DNA from: an uncultured Methanoregulaceae archaeon
GTDB lineage: Archaea > Halobacteriota > Methanomicrobia > Methanomicrobiales > Methanospirillaceae
NCBI GenBank assembly: GCA_963737635.1
Contig: CAVTTL010000001.1
Coordinates: 160,001-224,000, forward strand
Length of the DNA: 64,000 bases
Direction: 5' to 3'
A program made the position numbers and the translations under genes. Below the pieces are notes generated by a model. The model was not told the origin of the DNA and searched no databases. It saw nothing but the letters and a program-made list of their open reading frames with translations. Of the stretch, positions 3,795 to 14,892 are shown piece after piece. Numbering within the stretch: position 1 is the stretch's first letter; each line of letters starts with the position of its first letter.

Positions 3795-3911
3795 TGCTGC
3801 GGGTGGGTTACGATCCCACGATCTCCAGATGTCCCAAAGTTCTCACGCACCAAAGCGGGCGTGTATCAAACCCTATGAGTCTGGCGCCCTAACCAGCTAG
3901 GCCACCGCAGC
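3795..3911 (-). tRNA. Elongator tRNA-Met(CAU) with 43-nt intron at 37/38 (3831-3873)
   Basis: Acceptor stem GCTGCGG/CCGCAGC, D-loop AGCTGGTTA, anticodon arm CCAGA-CT-CAT-A...A-TCTGG. BHB-like junction (CTCA/TGGG helix with TAG and ACA bulges). Confidence 0.9.
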
Positions 3912-3976
3912 ACGAGGTGCATAATTACAACGCCGTAAAAATTCTTAAAGGTTCTGATACGAAAGATGAGCACGTA

Positions 3977-5452
3977 TCAGCCTTTTTTCTGCTGGAGATA
4001 GACGTTCACCGCTGCGGTTATCGCGGCCACTTTGTTGCCCTGGGAAAACGAACCGGCAAGGGTCTGCATCCGTGTCTCCTCATCGGTCTTGTACCGTTCA
4101 AGTGTTTTTATGATATGCTCTTCCTGCAGGAAGTGGGTATGGGTGTTGCCCTCAATGAACTGCGGGTTGTTCATAATTGCATAGTGAAGCGGGAGCGTGG
4201 TTTTGATCCCAAGGATGATGTATTCCGAGATTGCGCGGCGCATTCTCATGATTGCCTCGGGACGCGTACTGTCCCATGCGCAGAGTTTTGCGATCATCGA
4301 ATCGTAGTTGGGCGGGATCATGTATCCCATATGGATACCGCTGTCCACCCTGATACCGGGACCGCCCGGGGACCGGTACCGGAGGATCTTGCCCGGGTCA
4401 GCGGCAAAATTGTTGAGCGGGTCTTCCGCGTTGATCCGGCACTCGATCGCGTGTCCCCGGATCGATATGTCCTCCTGGTCAAACGGCAGGGATTCACCGG
4501 CGGCGATGGCTATCTGCTGCTTGACAAGATCGATCCCCGTGATGAACTCGGTGATGGTGTGCTCGACCTGCAGCCGGGTGTTCATCTCCATGAAGTAATA
4601 GTTCCCGTTACTGTACAGGAACTCGACCGATCCGGCATTGGTGTAATCCGACGCTTCCGCCACCTTGAGCGCAGAAGACGACATGCGTTCGCGCAGCTCG
4701 GGTGTCATAATCGCCGAGGGGGCCTCTTCGACCAGTTTCTGGTGCCGGCGCTGGATGGAACACTCGCGGTCGTAGAGGTGGACTGCATGCCCATGCTCGT
4801 CGGCAAGCACCTGAAACTCGATATGCCGGGGCTTGACCAGGTATTTTTCGATAAAGACCGTAGGATCGCCGAACGCAGACTGGGCGATCCGCATGCTGCC
4901 GGTAATTGCTTCTTCGAGGGCAGCCTCATCGTTAACGATCTGCATCCCAATCCCGCCACCACCAGCGCTCGCTTTCACGATGACCGGGTAGCCGATCTCT
5001 CCTGCCACCTTTTTTGCCGTATCGATATCCTTGATGCCGTCATCGGTCCCCGGCAGCACCGGCACACCGGCCTGCTTCATCATCTGCTTGCTGCCGATCT
5101 TGGATCCCATGGCTTTGATGGTCTTTGAGCACGGACCAATAAAGATCACGCCTTCATCAGCGCAGTGCTTGGCAAAACGGTAATTCTCCGCGAGGAAACC
5201 GTATCCCGGATGGATCGCCTCGGCACCGCTCTTTTTTGCAATGTCAACGATCCGGTCCATGTTGAGGTAGCTCTTCGAAGGGTGTGCTTCACCGACCGGG
5301 AAGGCTTCATCTGCATATTTCACATGAAGGGCATTTTTGTCCACAGAAGAATAGATCGCCACCGTATCGATATCGAGTTCCCGGCAGGCACGCATGACCC
5401 GGATCGCGATCTCGCCCCGGTTTGCGATCAGGATCTTCTCAAAAAATTTCAT
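3977..5452 (-). CDS. pycA: Pyruvate carboxylase subunit A (biotin carboxylase)
   Basis: ANRGEIA, HPGYGFLAEN, RECSIQRRHQK, EMNTRLQVEH. Confidence 0.95.
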   Translation of the reverse strand: MKFFEKILIANRGEIAIRVMRACRELDIDTVAIYSSVDKNALHVKYADEAFPVGEAHPSKSYLNMDRIVDIAKKSGAEAIHPGYGFLAENYRFAKHCADEGVIFIGPCSKTIKAMGSKIGSKQMMKQAGVPVLPGTDDGIKDIDTAKKVAGEIGYPVIVKASAGGGGIGMQIVNDEAALEEAITGSMRIAQSAFGDPTVFIEKYLVKPRHIEFQVLADEHGHAVHLYDRECSIQRRHQKLVEEAPSAIMTPELRERMSSSALKVAEASDYTNAGSVEFLYSNGNYYFMEMNTRLQVEHTITEFITGIDLVKQQIAIAAGESLPFDQEDISIRGHAIECRINAEDPLNNFAADPGKILRYRSPGGPGIRVDSGIHMGYMIPPNYDSMIAKLCAWDSTRPEAIMRMRRAISEYIILGIKTTLPLHYAIMNNPQFIEGNTHTHFLQEEHIIKTLERYKTDEETRMQTLAGSFSQGNKVAAITAAVNVYLQQKKG

Positions 5453-8579: not shown

Positions 8580-9247
8580 ACCGGCCACCTCCATGAGAGC
8601 GGGTAGAAGGATGTATCGGAAAGCCGGGAAAAGACCGCCGCCGGTGCCCCGGTATGCACCACCCGGCCCTTCTCAAAATAGAGCAGCAGGTTCCCTTGTG
8701 CCGCAGTCTCCATCTGCTGCGTACACCGGATGATATACGGAACACCGGAAGCGCGGAGAGCCTCCTCGAGCCATGCGCACCGGCCCGCGTCAAGGTGCGA
8801 ATCGCATTCATCAAGGACGAGGACGCGGGGCCGGTTGATGCAGGCCGCGGCAAACGCAACGATGACTTTCTCTCCTCCGCTCAGGTCCTGCATGCGCCGG
8901 TCCAGCAGGTTATGGATCCCAAAACGTCCTGCACAGTCCCGTACTGCACGACTTGTCTCTTTACATGGTGTATACTGAAAACGCAAGGACGAGGCAAGTT
9001 CATCCCGTACTGTCGAAAAAAGGATGTTCCGATCCGGGAACTCGTTTACATACCCAATCCCGGTCAACCGGGGGGGCTGTTCGTCAACGAGCACGATACC
9101 GCACTCAGGTTCAGTGATACCGGCGCAAAGTTTCAAAAAGGTACTTTTGCCGCTGCCGTTCCTGCCGATAACCGATGTGACGCCAGGGGGAATAGCAAGA
9201 GCATCGATAGCAAGGCACCGATACCGGATTTTATCAAGAGTGATCAT
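8576..9247 (-). CDS. ECF/ABC ATPase
   Basis: GRNGSGKST, LSGGE, VLVLDE. Confidence 0.88.
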   Translation of the reverse strand: MITLDKIRYRCLAIDALAIPPGVTSVIGRNGSGKSTFLKLCAGITEPECGIVLVDEQPPRLTGIGYVNEFPDRNILFSTVRDELASSLRFQYTPCKETSRAVRDCAGRFGIHNLLDRRMQDLSGGEKVIVAFAAACINRPRVLVLDECDSHLDAGRCAWLEEALRASGVPYIIRCTQQMETAAQGNLLLYFEKGRVVHTGAPAAVFSRLSDTSFYPLSWRWPV

Positions 9248-9753
9248 GGCAGCTGCCGGGCAACCAGGTACACGGCACCGGCCTTTGCCGCTTCACCAGG
9301 AAGGAAAATGACTAGTCCAAGGATGAATGCCGCACCAAGGGCCATACCCGAAGTTGCCATCAGCCATGCCACACCGCAGAGGAGGATGAGCACTGCAGCG
9401 CAGCAAAGCCCCGCAATCCGCCGGATCAAACCATCCGACTCCCAGGCAACACCGGCAAGGAAAGCCGCAGGAATAAACCCGATCAGGTATCCCCCGGTAG
9501 GCCCAAGCAGTACACCTATCCCGGCGACACCGTTATGAAAAATCGGCAGGCCGAGGGTACCTAGCACCACATACAACGCGACCGGGATAACGGCTTCGCG
9601 CTTCATGACCGCTGCAGAGAGCAGGACAAAAAACGTCTGTAGGGTAAACGGTGCGGGAACGAACGGAACCGAGATCCAGCCGCCTAAGGTGATGAGTCCG
9701 ATAAAGGCTGCAGTATAGGCAATACGGCGTGAACGCTGGAGGTCGCCAAACAT
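9244..9753 (-). CDS. bioY: Biotin transporter S component BioY
   Basis: PFTLQTF, GLPIF, GPTGGYLIGF. Confidence 0.92.
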   Translation of the reverse strand: MFGDLQRSRRIAYTAAFIGLITLGGWISVPFVPAPFTLQTFFVLLSAAVMKREAVIPVALYVVLGTLGLPIFHNGVAGIGVLLGPTGGYLIGFIPAAFLAGVAWESDGLIRRIAGLCCAAVLILLCGVAWLMATSGMALGAAFILGLVIFLPGEAAKAGAVYLVARQLP

Positions 9754-9785
9754 CGTCAACCACTAAAAATTGAGAGGTTGACGAT
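9752..9785. promoter_or_regulatory. BirA-type operator overlapping the bioY start and TATA box
   Basis: Perfect ATCGTCAACC-N14-GGTTGACGAT, resembling the BirA box GTtAAC-N14-16-GTTaAC. Confidence 0.8.
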
Positions 9786-9796
9786 AAAAAAGTACC

Positions 9797-9805
9797 GGTC
9801 TCACT
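9797..9805 (+). repeat. Target-site duplication, left (GGTCTCACT)
   Basis: Identical to 13933-13941; extends to 13 bp (CCGGTCTCACTGG) if the TIRs are taken as 12 bp. Confidence 0.9.
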
Positions 9806-9909
9806 GGCTTTGCACGTAATGTCGTTTCTGCACGTAAAGTATGAGACTTGCACGTAAAGTCCAAAATGTTGCGGCAATAATCGGAAATTGGACGAAAGAT
9901 AAAAAAAAG

Positions 9910-11262
9910 TTACTTTCTCGTCTCTTCGGCTTCTATGCCATAGAAGTCTAGTTTTATTTGGACAGCTTCTTTCTGTACTCTATCTTCATCAATTTTATCA
10001 AAGAAAGATGAAAGCTTGTCTTTAATGTCATACTCAGGGCCAGTGATTTTTCTAGAATTTGCTGCTACAGTTAAAACATCAGATAATAATTCCTTTCCGC
10101 CTTTGTTTGGAGCTATTGTTAAAACGCCCTCAGTTATAGCATCTTTACTGATTAACCCAACCTGATCTAATGAGTTCCTCACTTTTTGAACAACCGCAAC
10201 TTCAAATTCGTCAATTAATTCGTCTTCTGTGACCGAATCCCGATTTTGTATTTTTACGAGTATATCCGTTGACTCAGGTACACTTCTTATAAGACGCAAT
10301 ATGTCAGCAGCATTGTTGTATTCGTAATAATTCAAACCTAGCAATGTGCCACTTGTAGGGCGACTTAATGCATCTTCTAATTGGAGTGTACGTGTCCTTT
10401 GGGCAAGTCCCATATTATCAACGTGCCTAATTAACCGATTCACAACCCTCTGATTCCACCCTGTAGCTTCAACAATTTCGCTTTGAGTGATATAACCTCC
10501 AAATTCTCCCGTTGTGATTAATAACTGCTTTAATGCAACTCTTACCTCATTTGCCTCTTCTAATACAGTTTGCCAAGTATTCAGGGCTTTTTCTCCGAGA
10601 ACGTATGCTTTAGCAAAAGTAAATTCTCTTCCAGTTACACTAATCGGACGGATTATGTCGATATCTGATAATGCACCATAATCCCTTGCAAAATCAGCCC
10701 AATTTGGAGAATTTGCCTCAAGATCATTTGTAAGTTCCGGAAAATCCTGAATACGGTACATAATATCAAAATGGTTTTTTTGCTCGCTAAACAACTTTGT
10801 ATTCAAAAGGAAGTTATTTCGGACATACAATTTACTGCCCACTTGATATGGCATTACTTTTTCAATTTTCTTTTTTGTTGGATCAAATTGAATTATTCCA
10901 TCGGAAATAAGATGAGGTATAACAGTACCATTCAAACTAGTGTTGAAACTAGATCTTTGACTTGTTGTAGGTGTGACATTCCAAACTCTTTCCACAATAT
11001 CATTCACGGAATGAGTGGAGTGAGCAGCATCCAAAAATGCCAATGCTCTGGCTAGAGAGACGGCAGAGCTAAAATGTCCGGCATGTCTTTGATAAGTTCT
11101 CAGTGGATTCGATAAAACAAATTCTCTGACCCCACGGGTCATCTGATCTACCGCTCTTATTACATCATTTAATTGTTTATCATTCAAACGAGAGAGAACA
11201 TTTGGAGGTATTTTTTTAACCATAGGATCTGAAAGATAGGGTTTAAAAATATCATCGGCCAT
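9910..11262 (-). CDS. Uncharacterised 450-aa transposon cargo protein with several winged-helix-like segments
   Basis: ITQSEIVEATGWNQRVVNRLIRHVDNMGLAQR and VTEDELIDEF...RNSLDQVGLISK. Confidence 0.6.
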   Translation of the reverse strand: MADDIFKPYLSDPMVKKIPPNVLSRLNDKQLNDVIRAVDQMTRGVREFVLSNPLRTYQRHAGHFSSAVSLARALAFLDAAHSTHSVNDIVERVWNVTPTTSQRSSFNTSLNGTVIPHLISDGIIQFDPTKKKIEKVMPYQVGSKLYVRNNFLLNTKLFSEQKNHFDIMYRIQDFPELTNDLEANSPNWADFARDYGALSDIDIIRPISVTGREFTFAKAYVLGEKALNTWQTVLEEANEVRVALKQLLITTGEFGGYITQSEIVEATGWNQRVVNRLIRHVDNMGLAQRTRTLQLEDALSRPTSGTLLGLNYYEYNNAADILRLIRSVPESTDILVKIQNRDSVTEDELIDEFEVAVVQKVRNSLDQVGLISKDAITEGVLTIAPNKGGKELLSDVLTVAANSRKITGPEYDIKDKLSSFFDKIDEDRVQKEAVQIKLDFYGIEAEETRK

Positions 11263-11263
11263 A

Positions 11264-12238
11264 TCATTTCATCTCCTTGAGGATTTTCTTCTTGCAATCA
11301 TCCAAAAATATTTGAGAAATTATTATATTATCTGTTTTTGGGTCAAGGGACACAATCGAAGCATTGTTAATTTTTAATCTCCAATTCTCGTGTTTAAATA
11401 GACGATCAAGATCAGGGGCGAAATCATAATTCTTTAGAGATTTTAACAAGATATCACGATCTTCAGCTTGTTTTATTGAATGAATTGCATCGGAAAATAT
11501 TGCAAAAATTTGTTCATTCAGATCAAGAATAGGGGCAAACGGATGTATGGATGTGCTCGATGCTTTCCCCTCCAATTTATAACTCATAGCTGAAGCCAAT
11601 CCCCGAATTAATGAAAAATATTGCATATTTTGTTTATTCACTTTTTCAATTTTGTACAGAGGCTCAAAAAGTGTGGAAATGTCTTTACCAGAAGGATTAC
11701 GGATTGTTTTTATTGAAATTATGGTATGAGCTGAACTGATAATCATAATCCTTCGGATTGTATCTAATGATGTGGCATTACCTAATTGTTGAGATAATTC
11801 TAGATCATTAAGTCCTTCCTTAAAATTCTCAATAACTTCCCAACAATGGTTTTCAAAGATTAAGGAAAAGGGTGAAAACGGATCGCACACCATTGAATCA
11901 TAGCTCTCAGCAAGCAATCCCGCAGTAATATGGTTTTTTGTTGAGGAATCTAAATCGTCTTCCAATGCAGGAATGCCCCCAACCCATCTAACGAACGATT
12001 TTTTTGACTTTATTCCTTTATATTTGACTACAAATCCCTCGTTCTGAAGAATATTTGCGCGTCTACCTGTGTTGCTTGCATGAAGGCCTATCTCTAAAGC
12101 AAGATCAGGGACGGAAATCTCCTTCCTCTCGAAAACTATTTTTAGAATCTTTTCATCAATGGGATCAATTGGTCTATTAATGATCTTGGCAATTCGTGTT
12201 GTTTTCGAACCGCTTGATTTTTTTGGGTCTGGCTTCAT
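11264..12238 (-). CDS. Uncharacterised cargo protein with N-terminal MarR/ArsR-like wHTH
   Basis: DEKILKIV..RKEISVPDLALEIGLHASNTGRRANILQNEGFV; 1-nt gap to the next gene. Confidence 0.65.
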   Translation of the reverse strand: MKPDPKKSSGSKTTRIAKIINRPIDPIDEKILKIVFERKEISVPDLALEIGLHASNTGRRANILQNEGFVVKYKGIKSKKSFVRWVGGIPALEDDLDSSTKNHITAGLLAESYDSMVCDPFSPFSLIFENHCWEVIENFKEGLNDLELSQQLGNATSLDTIRRIMIISSAHTIISIKTIRNPSGKDISTLFEPLYKIEKVNKQNMQYFSLIRGLASAMSYKLEGKASSTSIHPFAPILDLNEQIFAIFSDAIHSIKQAEDRDILLKSLKNYDFAPDLDRLFKHENWRLKINNASIVSLDPKTDNIIISQIFLDDCKKKILKEMK

Positions 12239-12388
12239 AATACATTCATTCTCCCCGAAGTTTTTACATCTTTGCGCAATCTGCAACTCTGCGCAACTCT
12301 GCGCATATAATCAACGTTGCTCTCCTGACTACTTATAAATAACTCCATTTCGAACATTAATTTTCACCCTGCGTTCTGAATGTTTTAA

Positions 12389-12538
12389 TTAACCATTCAT
12401 TTTCTCTCTCTTCGGAATGTTCCAATAAGGACTCTTACACTTCGGACAAACTTTTGGCTCCTCCGTACCTCGTGCGATCCACTCGTGCCCACACCGTTCA
12501 CACTTGAATCCATCAACTACTAGCTTCACTTTTGCCAT
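12389..12538 (-). CDS. 49-aa C4 zinc-ribbon protein (not in ORF track)
   Basis: MAKVKLVVDGFKCERCGHEWIARGTEEPKVCPKCKSPYWNIPKREKMNG*; divergent from the transposase. Confidence 0.75.
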   Translation of the reverse strand: MAKVKLVVDGFKCERCGHEWIARGTEEPKVCPKCKSPYWNIPKREKMNG

Positions 12539-12662
12539 GCATAGTGTGTTACTTTGTTAGTATATAATTATGTAAGGTATTACCAACTAATCGGCAAGTA
12601 TATATGCAATGCTTACGTATATAGTAATATACCAACAAGGTAAGTTTAAGGAGTGAAAAAAG

Positions 12663-13898
12663 ATGCAAACCAACAAACCCCTAACCACCAGCCGCGAAGA
12701 GAGGGGGCGAGAAATCGCTAACAAGAGCGGTCACATCCAGAAAGTCAAAGACAACCAGTACAAGGTAAGGTCACAGTCCGGCAATGGCTCTTATGAGATC
12801 AAAATCACCGGGACCGGGGCCGAATGCAGTTGCCCGGATTTCCAGAACCGGCACCAGCCCTGTAAACACATTCTGGGACTTCGCTATTATCTTGAAATTC
12901 AGAAAGATACTCCAAAAGGCACCGTTACTGAAAAGGTACGCTTAACCTACACTCAGGCATGGAGCGCATACAACGCCGCGCAGACAGAAGAGATCAAGAT
13001 ATTCGATGCTCTGTTAAAGGACTTAGTAAAGGCGATTCCTGAGCCGGAGCAAAAGATGGGGAGACCGCGCCTGCCCATGAGTGAAACTCTCTTCTGTGCG
13101 ATTCAGAAGGTATACTCGCAGTTATCCAGCCGCCGCGCACACAGCCTCTTTCAAAATGCAGTCGAGCGGAAACAGATCGACCACGCGCCATACTTCAATG
13201 TAACATCAGCCGTTTTTAACAACCCTGAGATTACGCCGATACTTCACGAACTGGTTACACTCTCGGCGTTACCGGTTGCCGGTCTGGAAACAGACTTCGC
13301 GGTAGACTCTACCGGATTCAGAACCACTACATTTAGCGAATACTGCGGAATGAAACATGGACAGAAGAAAGCACACCGATGGATCAAGGCACACTTGGCA
13401 ACCGGTGTAAAGACCAATATCGTAACAAGTATTGAGATCACCGGAGAGAACGGTGCGGATTCCCCGCAGTTTACGCCACTTGTCAAAGACATCTCAAAGA
13501 ATTTCAATATCCACGAGATTTCCGCCGACAAAGCATATTCATCCCGCGACAACTACGAGACTGTAAATGCAGTCGGCGGTACTGCATATATCCCGTTCAA
13601 GAATCATGCAACTGGCAAGACTCGCGGCTCTCCCATCTGGAAAAAGATGTACCATTACTTCCAACTTAACAAGGACGAGTTTATGGAGCACTATCACAAG
13701 CGCAGTAATGTAGAATCCACCAACGCAGCGATCAAAAGGAAGTTCGGGGAAACCCTGAAATCAAAGAATCAGATCGCGCAGGTGAACGAATTACTAGCAA
13801 AAATCATCGCATACAATCTGACGGTAGTAATTCACGAGATGTACGAGAATGGGATCTCACCGGACTTCCTGCACGTAAAGTCCGAGGTTTGCACGTAA
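12663..13898 (+). CDS. SWIM-zinc-finger DDE transposase (IS4/IS5-like superfamily)
   Basis: SWIM CSC-x9-CKH. DDE triad AVDSTG / ADKAY / NVES. Y-2-R-3-E-6-K motif YHKRSNVESTNAAIK. RBS GGAGTG. Confidence 0.9.
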   Translation: MQTNKPLTTSREERGREIANKSGHIQKVKDNQYKVRSQSGNGSYEIKITGTGAECSCPDFQNRHQPCKHILGLRYYLEIQKDTPKGTVTEKVRLTYTQAWSAYNAAQTEEIKIFDALLKDLVKAIPEPEQKMGRPRLPMSETLFCAIQKVYSQLSSRRAHSLFQNAVERKQIDHAPYFNVTSAVFNNPEITPILHELVTLSALPVAGLETDFAVDSTGFRTTTFSEYCGMKHGQKKAHRWIKAHLATGVKTNIVTSIEITGENGADSPQFTPLVKDISKNFNIHEISADKAYSSRDNYETVNAVGGTAYIPFKNHATGKTRGSPIWKKMYHYFQLNKDEFMEHYHKRSNVESTNAAIKRKFGETLKSKNQIAQVNELLAKIIAYNLTVVIHEMYENGISPDFLHVKSEVCT

Positions 13899-13932
13899 TG
13901 TAGGGTCAAAACCCTACTTTACGTGCAAAGCC

Positions 13933-13941
13933 GGTCTCACT
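13933..13941 (+). repeat. Target-site duplication, right (contains the birA stop)
   Basis: GGTCTCACT, identical to 9797-9805. Confidence 0.9.
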
Positions 13942-14892
13942 GGTGGAAACAGTCGCCGGCGATTACACGTTCAAGCTTGCCATTGTCTTTGCGGATGATG
14001 AGCGCGCCAAACTCGTCGATATCAACCGCCTCACCAGAAAAACTGTTCTTGAGTGTCCGGATATTCACCCGGTGTTCGAGTGTGCAGGAGAGGCTTTTCC
14101 ATTCCCGGATGATGGTATCGTATTCCCCACCTTCGAGAAGGAGATACTGGCCCTCAAACTCTTTTAAGATCCGTGCGAGAAACGAAGCACGGTCTACTTC
14201 GTGGCCGAGTTCTGCGGATATCGAGGTAATATTGTCCTGCAGCGCCGGAGAGAACGTACTGATGGGAACATTTGCATCGATGCCTATCCCGAGCAGGCAG
14301 TAATGGACGGTATCAGCTTCCGCCGCGAGCTCAAGAAGCAGGCCTGCGACTTTCTTGTTCCCAATGAAGATGTCATTTGGCCACTTGATCAGTCCACCGA
14401 GGGAAAACTCCTTGCGTATCGCCCGTGCAACCGCGACAGAACCTGCCATGGTGATCATAAAGACATGATCGATCGGGATATGGGGCTTTAGGACAATCGT
14501 AATCCAGATCCCGCCGCTGGGCGAGAGCCAGGCCCTTCCCATCCTGCCGATGCCGCCGGTCTGCTCCTCGGCGATGATTACCATACCGTGCATCTTCTCT
14601 ACGTCGCCTTCGGCACAGAGCTGTTTTCCCGCCCAGATGGTCGAAGGCGTATTCTCCAGGTACCGCATCTTCTTTCCAATAAACGTGGTATGGAGTTTTT
14701 TATGGATCTCGTACGGGAGCAGCTTGTTGCTCATGCGGGTGAGCCGGTACCCTCTTTCTGAGATGACTCGATGTCATAACCCATCATGCGCAGTTCGTTG
14801 ATGTGCTTCCATACCGCAGACCGGGTGATGCCCAGTTCGTTGCTGACAGCCTCACCTGATATGGGACCGTCCGCCTTTTCGAGAATTTCCAT
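13937..14892 (-). CDS. birA: Bifunctional biotin ligase/repressor (frameshift near 14750 separates the HTH)
   Basis: QTGGIGRMGR, KWPND, KKVAGLL; the upstream frame encodes ISGEAVSNELGITRSAVWKHINELR (HTH). Confidence 0.9.

Follow-up and report, generated by a model that had tools for sequence, protein, structure and literature searches.

The stretch analysed here, referred to throughout as the window, comprises 64,000 nucleotides of contig CAVTTL010000001.1 (GenBank assembly GCA_963737635.1) from an uncultured Methanoregulaceae archaeon. Window positions 9806-13932, between the host genes birA and bioY, are occupied by a cargo transposon, a unit of 4,127 bp (about 4.1 kb) that is bounded by terminal inverted repeats and flanked by a target-site duplication (Table 1). 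The transposon encodes one transposase with an N-terminal SWIM module, and its passenger DNA of about 2.6-2.7 kb contains three minus-strand open reading frames (ORFs) of 450, 324 or 340, and 49 amino acids (aa), in agreement with the 2.7 kb of passenger genes described in an earlier note on this DNA.

Table 1. Features of the transposon and its flanks, and loci of related SWIM-fused transposases in the same genome. Positions refer to the window unless a locus is named.
Feature	Position	Strand	Remarks
bioY, intact host gene	9244-9759	-	Pfam BioY, 2e-35
bioY core promoter, intact	9752-9793	-	T-rich TATA-like box TTTTTTAT at 9786-9793; inverted repeat at 9752-9785
Left target-site duplication copy	9797-9805		9 bp, GGTCTCACT; identical to 13933-13941
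Left terminal inverted repeat (IRL)	9806-9819	+	GGCTTTGCACGTAA; perfect reverse complement of 13919-13932
Left subterminal direct repeats (three)	9809-9822, 9827-9840, 9847-9860	+	TTGCACGTAA(A/T)GT; from repeat finder; conserved in the second copy (L019)
Cargo gene 2, 450 aa	9910-11262	-	Several winged-helix domains; from ORF list
Cargo gene 1, 324 aa	11264-12238	-	N-terminal winged helix-turn-helix (wHTH) and conserved C-terminal part; ATG at 12238, frame open to TTG at 12286 (340 aa)
Zinc-ribbon protein, 49 aa (backbone gene)	12389-12538	-	Weak zinc-ribbon Pfam and TIGR02605 matches
Divergent intergenic region, AT-rich	12539-12662		Between zinc-ribbon and transposase genes; in block 84% identical to second copy
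Transposase, 411 aa	12663-13898	+	N-terminal SWIM module, aa 1-99; IS5-type DDE core, aa 100-387
Right subterminal repeats	13866-13929		Direct copies at 13868-13881 and 13888-13901; inverted copy at 13916-13929
Right terminal inverted repeat (IRR)	13919-13932	-	TTACGTGCAAAGCC; perfect 14-nt pair with IRL
Right target-site duplication copy	13933-13941		9 bp; holds birA stop codon (complement of 13937-13939)
birA, host gene	13937-14892	-	HTH frame 14731-14892, ligase frame 13937-14734; Pfam and NCBIfam matches
SWIM-IS6 locus	L280 6106-10101 (G000:C1:419000-433000)		
SWIM-IS6 locus	L278 7932-9080		
SWIM-IS6 locus	L279 6831-9599		
SWIM-IS6 locus	L281 7790-9025		

The two 14-nt ends are exact reverse complements of each other, as the earlier note had reported, and of the two duplication lengths it offered, the 9-nt version is exact on both sides of the element. 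A 13-nt direct repeat, CCGGTCTCACTGG, is present as well, the CC/GG at the junction being readable either as end or as duplication, and 14-nt ends with a 9-nt duplication were chosen because the relatives fit that reading; the 9-nt length is common to all 22 bounded copies described below, and the 13-nt repeat was ruled out as the true duplication. Chance does not explain the ends or the duplication, since matching ends are again paired with a 9-nt duplication, exact or nearly so, in the genome's second copy and, among other genomes, at 20 of 80 loci; the IRL 14-mer itself also terminates the second copy and several other loci. The repeat finder additionally reports wider inverted arms at 9794-9822 and 13916-13944. 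The subterminal repeats inside both ends are putative transposase-binding sites, and those on the right overlap the 3' end of the transposase gene; a transposase frame that runs into the end repeats is common among insertion sequences (ISs). The divergent intergenic region presumably holds the promoters of the two genes that it separates.

Both neighbouring genes are left whole. The 3' end of birA is unharmed by the insertion, its TGA stop codon lying within the right duplication copy, and on the other side the left end of the element is 12 nt from the box TTTTTTAT, which is positioned on the minus strand between the transposon and the inverted repeat ATCGTCAACC-N14-GGTTGACGAT. This inverted repeat overlaps the bioY start, is kept in every same-genus locus listed, and is a likely BirA operator, being of the type described for the biotin regulon. 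The placement of the birA stop codon inside the duplication and of the left end just upstream of the bioY TATA-like box and putative BirA operator, both proposed previously, is confirmed. For the empty site, the bioY locus was retrieved from 19 relatives, and both genes were located in 18. The distance between birA and bioY is 9-53 nt in 16 of these 18 loci, the exceptions being L030 (506 nt) and L040 (174 nt), and in the closest relative (G015) the uninterrupted site, ...GACGAGAAAAAAGTACCGGTCT-ACTGGTGGAAACAGTCGCC (also written ...GGTTGACGAGAAAAAAGTACCGGTCT-ACTGGTGGAAACAGTCGCC), corresponds to the window's left flank, a single copy of the duplication and the right flank. The contiguous birA-bioY junction that the earlier note had suggested looking for therefore exists, and the ends, the duplication, the open transposase frame and this junction together bear out its description of an intact cargo transposon. 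In relative G009 the two genes are separated by another, different insert (L030 2040-2515; about 460 bp), immediately upstream of the same promoter, and no ends, duplication or match of this transposon family were found in it.

By profile comparison, the transposase is an IS5-family enzyme carrying an added SWIM module of about 100 residues. Pfam matches to DDE_Tnp_1 (PF01609; E 4.6e-26, aa 210-386) and SWIM (PF04434; E 3.3e-6, aa 52-73, 26.9 bits against a cut-off of 19.6) account for the two parts. The NCBIfam profile NF033579 (transpos_IS5_2) scores 142.3 bits, with aa 100-387 corresponding to positions 3-288 of the 289-position profile, while NF033592 (transpos_IS4_1) reaches 26.9 bits and falls below its cut-off of 115; no Mutator-type family is among the Pfam or NCBIfam rows. 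Because the IS5_2 match is above its cut-off of 140 while covering only aa 100-387, the N-terminal region is read as an addition to an IS5-type core. Across an alignment of 30 homologues with 69-91% identity, the SWIM CxCxnCxH ligands (C55, C57, C67 and H69), the residues D215, D289 and E351, and the signature Y344-R347-E351-K358 (Y-2-R-3-E-6-K) are invariant in all 30. A single transposase with a SWIM finger, DDE and YREK motifs had thus been recognised correctly, but the view that YREK marks an IS4-like enzyme gives way to the profile scores, the motif being shared by IS4 and IS5. More than 5,606 homologues are present in the protein database at E <= 1e-10, and those with names are labelled 'transposase' or 'IS5 family transposase' and come from Methanoregula, Methanothrix, a Pacearchaeota archaeon and others.

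A second copy in the same genome (L019 2282-5956, 3,675 bp) is bounded by 14-nt ends identical to those of the window element and flanked by the duplication GGATGCCCG. It is similar to the window element in the transposase (91% identity), the zinc-ribbon protein (89%), the backbone DNA (84%) and the left 58 nt (90%). Its cargo, which likewise lies between the left end and the zinc-ribbon gene, pairs an HTH protein of 184 aa with a second protein, of 468 aa, that is not related to the 450-aa protein of the window (best BLASTP E 0.41) and has no PDB match by sequence. The shared backbone and unrelated cargo of the two copies show that a conserved backbone is combined with an exchangeable cargo slot.

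The same organisation extends across the family. A scan of one genome per species gave 159 encoding stretches, and the 80 loci kept derive from Methanoregulaceae, Methanothrix, Methanosarcinales, Methanocellaceae, Micrarchaeota, Aenigmatarchaeota, Woesearchaeota, Thermoplasmatota and a few bacteria-labelled bins. Elements were considered bounded where related ends were accompanied by a 9-nt duplication with at most one mismatch; a first script delimited 16 of the 80 loci and a second one a further 4, which together with the genome's own two copies gives 22 bounded elements of 1,802-6,285 bp. All 22 have the 9-nt duplication, most have ends starting GGCTTTG, and all 22 hold extra DNA beyond the transposase gene, with cargo G+C below transposase-gene G+C in each of the 17 elements measured. 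The zinc-ribbon gene was detected by tblastn upstream of the transposase gene in further loci, and in other lineages an RHH_5, MazE-like or DUF7557 gene replaces this small divergent gene. At least 117 matches to the 14-mer end were found in viral contigs, but among 80 loci fetched for these matches none had a transposase or subterminal repeats, and the matches are taken as chance.

Annotation of the family cargo with Pfam, PADLOC and NCBIfam identified restriction-modification (R-M) or restriction genes in nine of the 22 bounded elements: a BsoBI endonuclease with a methyltransferase (L066); HSDR_N, N6_Mtase and S-domain proteins of type I-like M+S composition (L070, L075, L087, L098 and L101); a type IIG enzyme of 916 aa (L122); GmrSD-HNH with two methyltransferases (L121); and a C5 methyltransferase with HSDR_N_2 (L133). 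Two further elements have SDH/ClpP-like proteases (L073 and L092), one has small HNH genes (L095), and the smallest, of 1.8 kb, has only a 95-aa DUF2569 ORF (L139). The remaining cargo belongs to no assigned family and often pairs a small ribbon-helix-helix (RHH) or DUF7557 protein with an uncharacterised partner; NCBIfam and PADLOC returned nothing for the unassigned cargo of the other elements beyond the SDH/ClpP-like proteases, the type IIG enzyme and a weak NsnA row. Between the methyltransferase and S-subunit genes of L087, at 3849-4987, a nested IS630-type element with DDE_3 and HTH_32 ORFs is present.

We considered whether the unit might be an accidental composite, in which an ordinary IS made up of the zinc-ribbon gene and the transposase happened to lie next to a low-G+C island of other origin and an isolated left end, the passengers never having moved as a single piece. 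The step in base composition (G+C 0.31-0.40 in the cargo, 0.45-0.51 in the transposase gene and 0.51-0.62 in the flanks) would fit such a history, as would the existence of solo ends and decayed copies, namely an end without a transposase at L146, a partial third copy and a miniature inverted-repeat transposable element (MITE). The 9-nt duplication, however, encloses the entire 4,127-bp unit, all of which is missing from the relatives' empty site; no second left end is found beside the zinc-ribbon gene in either the window or L019; and the duplication encloses the whole unit in 22 elements. An accidental composite is therefore highly improbable.

The insertions share a fixed distance to a TATA-like box. 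Flanks of the 22 elements were read outward from the duplication on both sides, and octamers matching TTTATATA at 6 or more of 8 positions were recorded. Exactly 6 nt separate the duplication from the start of such an octamer in 15 of the 22 insertions (nine at the left, or cargo, end and six at the right), while each of the other offsets from 0 to 39 has at most four sites, with a mean of 0.49 per offset; the binomial P for the peak at +6 is about 2e-20, or 7e-19 without L141. The spacer, whose six positions played no part in site selection, reads R-A-A-A-S-N over the 15 sites, with A in 13 of 15 at +2 and +3. An A-rich spacer followed by a TATA box is the archaeal arrangement of transcription factor B recognition element (BRE) and TATA box, where transcription factor B (TFB) and the TATA-binding protein (TBP) sit. 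By a crude ORF test, the start of outward ORFs on the TATA side is often 35-52 nt away from the duplication, and in L075, L083, L087, L092, L101, L122 and L139 it is at +35 to +38, where a short-leader or leaderless start would fall.

The window follows the same layout, in which the duplication is succeeded by ggtact, TTTTTTAT, the operator and bioY, the box starting at +6. The genome also contains a MITE-like derivative of 412 bp (G000:C1:855947-856358, equal to L005 2733-3144), which has the ends GGTTTTGCACCTAA and TTAGGTGCAAAGCT, an exact 9-bp duplication, GAACTTTTG, and then caaacc-TTTAAGAT, again of BRE/TATA type. Among 10 further loci in which the right end alone is visible, three have a TATA-like box at +6 or +7, in line with the right-end share of the bounded set. 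The upstream edge of archaeal core promoters thus appears to be where this family inserts, and it is a real safe site; the one suggested in the earlier note for this one locus, with its undamaged flanks, is an instance of a family-wide placement. The flank extraction which that note had recommended yielded the 14-bp ends, the 9-bp duplication, the varied cargo and a target rule of TATA at +6.

Promoter-proximal positions might also arise by selection after random insertion, with harmless insertions surviving and no choice of target being made. Insertions into genes would be lost, and archaeal intergenic DNA is AT-rich and dense in promoters, both of which would push the survivors towards such sites. 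Selection of this kind cannot, however, yield a phase of a single nucleotide, with 15 of 22 sites at one offset against at most four at any of the 39 others, and the spacer is conserved too; we regard it as having very little chance of being correct. Because survival of harmless insertions alone gives no one-nucleotide phase, we conclude that the element chooses its position.

For the route of promoter recognition, direct reading of DNA sequence or shape seems the more likely, and tethering of the SWIM module to TBP/TFB the less likely. Under tethering, the binding target of the SWIM module would be the pre-initiation complex, in which TBP and TFB occupy bent DNA, and the cut would fall immediately upstream of the BRE; in Ty3, Tf1 and TnGBS-type elements, placement likewise relies on the transcription machinery. 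Consistent with this, the SWIM module extends an IS5-type core that is already complete and is itself invariant in the 30 aligned homologues, and the insertion point is phased to the seat of TFB and TBP. The module also behaves as a portable function, since four IS6-type (DDE_Tnp_IS240) transposases in the genome are fused to the same kind of N-terminal module (REERG...SQS...CxCPD...CKH). One of these SWIM-IS6 units, of 3,996 bp, has perfect 14-bp ends, GGTTCTGTTGCGTT, an 8-bp duplication, CGTTAGTC, and a cargo of GmrSD_N (379 aa), HEPN RiboL-PSP (228 aa) and DUF2080 (68 aa) proteins; another, of 2,769 bp, has cargo without a recognised family. The two bounded SWIM-IS6 units, however, lack a clear TATA box at +6 (n=2), SWIM domains are also known as DNA-binding modules, and the phasing is equally well accounted for by a plain DNA motif, RAAA-NN-TTTATATA. 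A complex prediction for transposase aa 1-105 (as an alignment) with the genome's TFB core and a TBP scored 0.01 against a mark of 0.32 and weighs neither way. Tethering is a rather unlikely candidate, direct reading of the DNA being preferred, and a role of the SWIM domain in targeting may be envisaged. The genome encodes three TBP paralogues and one TFB (L147, L148 and L149).

The window's own cargo is a pair of proteins with DNA-binding-type folds. The 324-aa protein has 54 homologues, mostly of 308-342 aa, among them a protein of Methanoregula formicica and another encoded on a metagenome contig of 4,527 bp, a length also listed for the contig of an 88%-identical transposase. It matches Pfam HTH_24 weakly (1.7e-4), and its AlphaFold2 model (predicted local distance difference test score, pLDDT, 82.5) shows a winged helix at the N-terminus and, after it, helical parts and parts resembling winged helices. 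Matches to solved folds are limited to the wHTH at aa 14-97 (Z 12.0 over aa 23-88; best Foldseek E 2.9e-3), the sequence match of the family to the PDB is confined to the same domain, and the ESM Atlas gave matches below 0.9 only, in generic winged-helix clusters. The 450-aa protein has 26 cluster representatives among 1.84 billion proteins and is modelled as a winged-helix array (AlphaFold2 pLDDT 80.1), with best fold matches to RPC62-like (Foldseek E 1.2e-3) and cullin-WHB/MarR-type structures (VIA Z 8.2, 76 residues aligned); the ESM Atlas gave no usable match for it. Against PADLOC the cargo produced only rows at E 0.0085-0.025 over winged-helix stretches, one of them (E 0.025) for the 450-aa protein, and the Pfam and NCBIfam matches of the cargo were confined to weak wHTH ones. 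We tentatively suggest that this cargo is accessory and might form a defence or addiction module, the defence label being given because of the relatives' same-slot cargo only, that is, by guilt by association.

The same 324- and 450-aa pair is found at L146 4500-7500, the sole locus from a metagenome scan with a single protein, within a 3-kb low-G+C island on a contig that has no transposase within 6 kb. The L146 pair adjoins a related transposon end of TTAGGTGCA repeats (...TTTAGGTGCAAAGTC), and short GCGTAAA(A/G)GTG repeats upstream of its operon recall the CTGCGCAACTCTGCGCA repeats upstream of the window operon at about 12270-12310.

A different view of the pair, and of the cargo in general, is that these proteins are accessory factors of transposition, such as target selectors or regulators, and not passengers. 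The folds of both window proteins would suit such a role, and the HTH protein of L019 has a weak TnsD match (E 0.0019) that is below cut-off. Arguing against it, transposases that are 91% identical carry unrelated cargo, R-M-type genes take the place of the pair in nine of 22 relatives, the L146 pair exists away from any transposase, and the smallest bounded element manages with its DUF2569 ORF. We consider an accessory function in transposition improbable and retain the passenger reading.

With respect to age, no close copy of the element was found in 30 relatives. A transposase match at E <= 1e-60 is present in 9 of the 228 genomes of the host family, the source genome included, and the matches of this wider search appear, from identities and positions, to be loci already fetched. 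Both junctions are bridged without differences by contigs of four other sequencing runs from four studies. From the absence in relatives and the junctions in the four runs, we conclude that the insertion is younger than the species, yet looks fixed in the sampled populations; the recent insertion proposed in the earlier note holds at the level of the species, but the junctions recur in these runs and no empty-site contig was seen. In other soil metagenome runs, contigs extend from the same left end (window 9861) into yet another cargo sequence, and in other soil runs from the 5' region of the transposase gene (window 12679-12733) into variant sequence; these loose contig ends indicate that further cargo variants of the backbone coexist in those samples.

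Taken together, we hold it to be very probable that window 9806-13932 is an intact, autonomous, passenger-carrying IS of the IS5 family (a transporter IS, tIS, or unit transposon) with an exchangeable cargo slot and promoter-edge target choice. Several observations weigh against this reading. The IS5_2 cut-off is passed by a narrow margin (142.3 against 140). Of the 80 loci, 58 are unbounded through contig ends, diverged ends or cargo above 7 kb, and the bounded set was selected for ends resembling those of the window. Seven of the 22 sites lack the +6 octamer, the genome's second copy matches 5 of 8 positions at +6 with its best TATA at +18, and L091 and L141 have nearly identical flanks and are non-independent. 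The two copies in the genome are 84% identical in DNA, giving no sign of recent movement within it, and the four runs yielded no contig joining across the element, although contigs drop rare variants. The window cargo, finally, belongs to a small family without a significant PADLOC match, an enzyme fold or an above-cut-off Pfam family.

In the mechanism that we propose, the transposase would bind the subterminal TGCACGTAA repeats as well as the 14-bp ends and would move, probably by cut and paste, all DNA between the ends, comprising a backbone (the zinc-ribbon gene, the divergent promoter region and the transposase gene) and the cargo slot. This slot is the interval between the left end and the zinc-ribbon gene, filled here by the two-gene multi-winged-helix operon and in the relatives most often by R-M or other nuclease and defence-type genes. 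A staggered cut is predicted to be placed so that the duplicated 9 bp abut an A-rich BRE-like hexamer and then the TATA box. Landing at the upstream edge of a core promoter would spare both neighbours, in this case the birA stop codon and the bioY promoter-operator.

The element shares with the IS903 group of the IS5 family the DDE_Tnp_1 domain, the Y-2-R-3-E-6-K signature, an above-cut-off IS5_2 match, ends starting with GGC and a 9-bp duplication; we take GGC termini and a 9-bp duplication to be IS903-group features as catalogued in ISfinder, phylogenetic placement aside. Classical IS903 is about 1.05 kb long with a single gene, whereas the family described here has in addition the SWIM module of about 100 aa, the extra divergent small gene, 0.5-5 kb of cargo, archaeal hosts and BRE/TATA phasing. 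Eukaryotic Mutator/MULE elements also have a SWIM finger joined to a DDE transposase, but theirs is a different transposase superfamily, the SWIM module is not known to occupy the same position, and the comparison made here extends to the SWIM motif; in promoter- or Pol III-targeting elements such as Ty3 and Tf1, the sites are set by the transcription machinery.

Having one transposase and passenger genes inside a single IS-type end pair with one duplication, the element resembles a tIS, of which the cited part of a review on the IS6 family names a single IS6 example, ISDsp3, without mention of a SWIM domain (PMC7986276); here, by comparison, cargo is the rule (22 of 22), exchangeable and often of restriction type. 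In behaviour it is similar to TnGBS, the ISLre2 family and the ISKra4 group, DDE transposons whose insertions keep a constant, short spacing upstream of a core promoter and thereby spare the genes. These are described, in the section cited, as bacterial elements of sigma-A promoters with Mutator-superfamily (p-MULT) transposases, and for archaea the same section only speculates that the AT-rich target of ISH6 might favour promoters (PMC3942029); the present element differs in its IS5-type core and archaeal BRE/TATA target. The transposon-like R-M units of Furuta, Abe and Kobayashi (2010) have R-M genes within inverted repeats and a short duplication. According to the portion of that paper cited, their hosts are bacteria, their duplications measure 8 bp and their selection followed the removal of linked mobility genes, and no archaeal R-M system survived the selection (PMC2853133). 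Tn7-like transposons, stated in the cited excerpt to carry many defence systems (PMC8649781), differ in using multi-protein machinery and attachment sites. Passenger-carrying transposons were undetected in archaea according to the cited part of a 2019 survey (PMC6563490). In a full-text literature search, which covered neither ISfinder nor the supplements of papers, neither an archaeal cargo transposon with a SWIM-fused IS5-type transposase nor insertion phased to BRE/TATA was found described, and the family may already bear a name. This result and the extra DNA in all bounded relatives are consistent with the poorly described archaeal transporter-IS lineage postulated in the earlier note. What is new is the family-wide phasing of insertion to a TATA box at +6, the passenger-carrying IS itself being a known kind.

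The family is a low-copy archaeal unit-transposon family, of which this locus is an ordinary clean insertion, and with its more than 5,600 homologues it is common and spans methanogens and DPANN-type lineages. It would constitute a small and simple vehicle for moving R-M and other defence genes between archaea. Phasing to the BRE/TATA at single-nucleotide precision is a target-selection rule that offers a handle on whether promoters are read as DNA or as a pre-initiation complex, and phased insertion could serve as a natural 'safe-harbour' tool for methanogen genetics. The cargo slot may act as a discovery filter, uncharacterised pairs located where relatives hold R-M genes being candidate defence or addiction modules. 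For annotation, birA and bioY at this locus are to be treated as undamaged by the insertion. A broader proposal, which is speculative and in our opinion unlikely, is that SWIM-fused DDE transposases form a widespread archaeal class that spans at least IS5 and IS6, ferries defence genes and homes to the BRE/TATA edge via the TBP/TFB-bound promoter, with the SWIM module as tether, an archaeal counterpart of Ty3/Tf1 and TnGBS. If this were true, the unassigned cargo pairs, including the winged-helix proteins of the window, would be new defence or addiction modules.

Two minor observations concern the flanking gene and the remaining relic of the family in the genome. At window 14731-14760, birA has one G fewer in a GGGG run than 3 of 3 relatives, and its HTH and ligase parts, which share one frame in relatives, are in two frames here, a state that could be a homopolymer sequencing error or a real repressor/ligase split. 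The partial third copy (G000:C1:1059117-1060402, equal to L020 4118-5403) retains a transposase fragment corresponding to aa 178-407 with 76% identity and one TAA stop; its right end is about 536 bp beyond the expected position, an intervening insertion being probable, and a SWIM-IS6 gene is positioned about 3 kb away.

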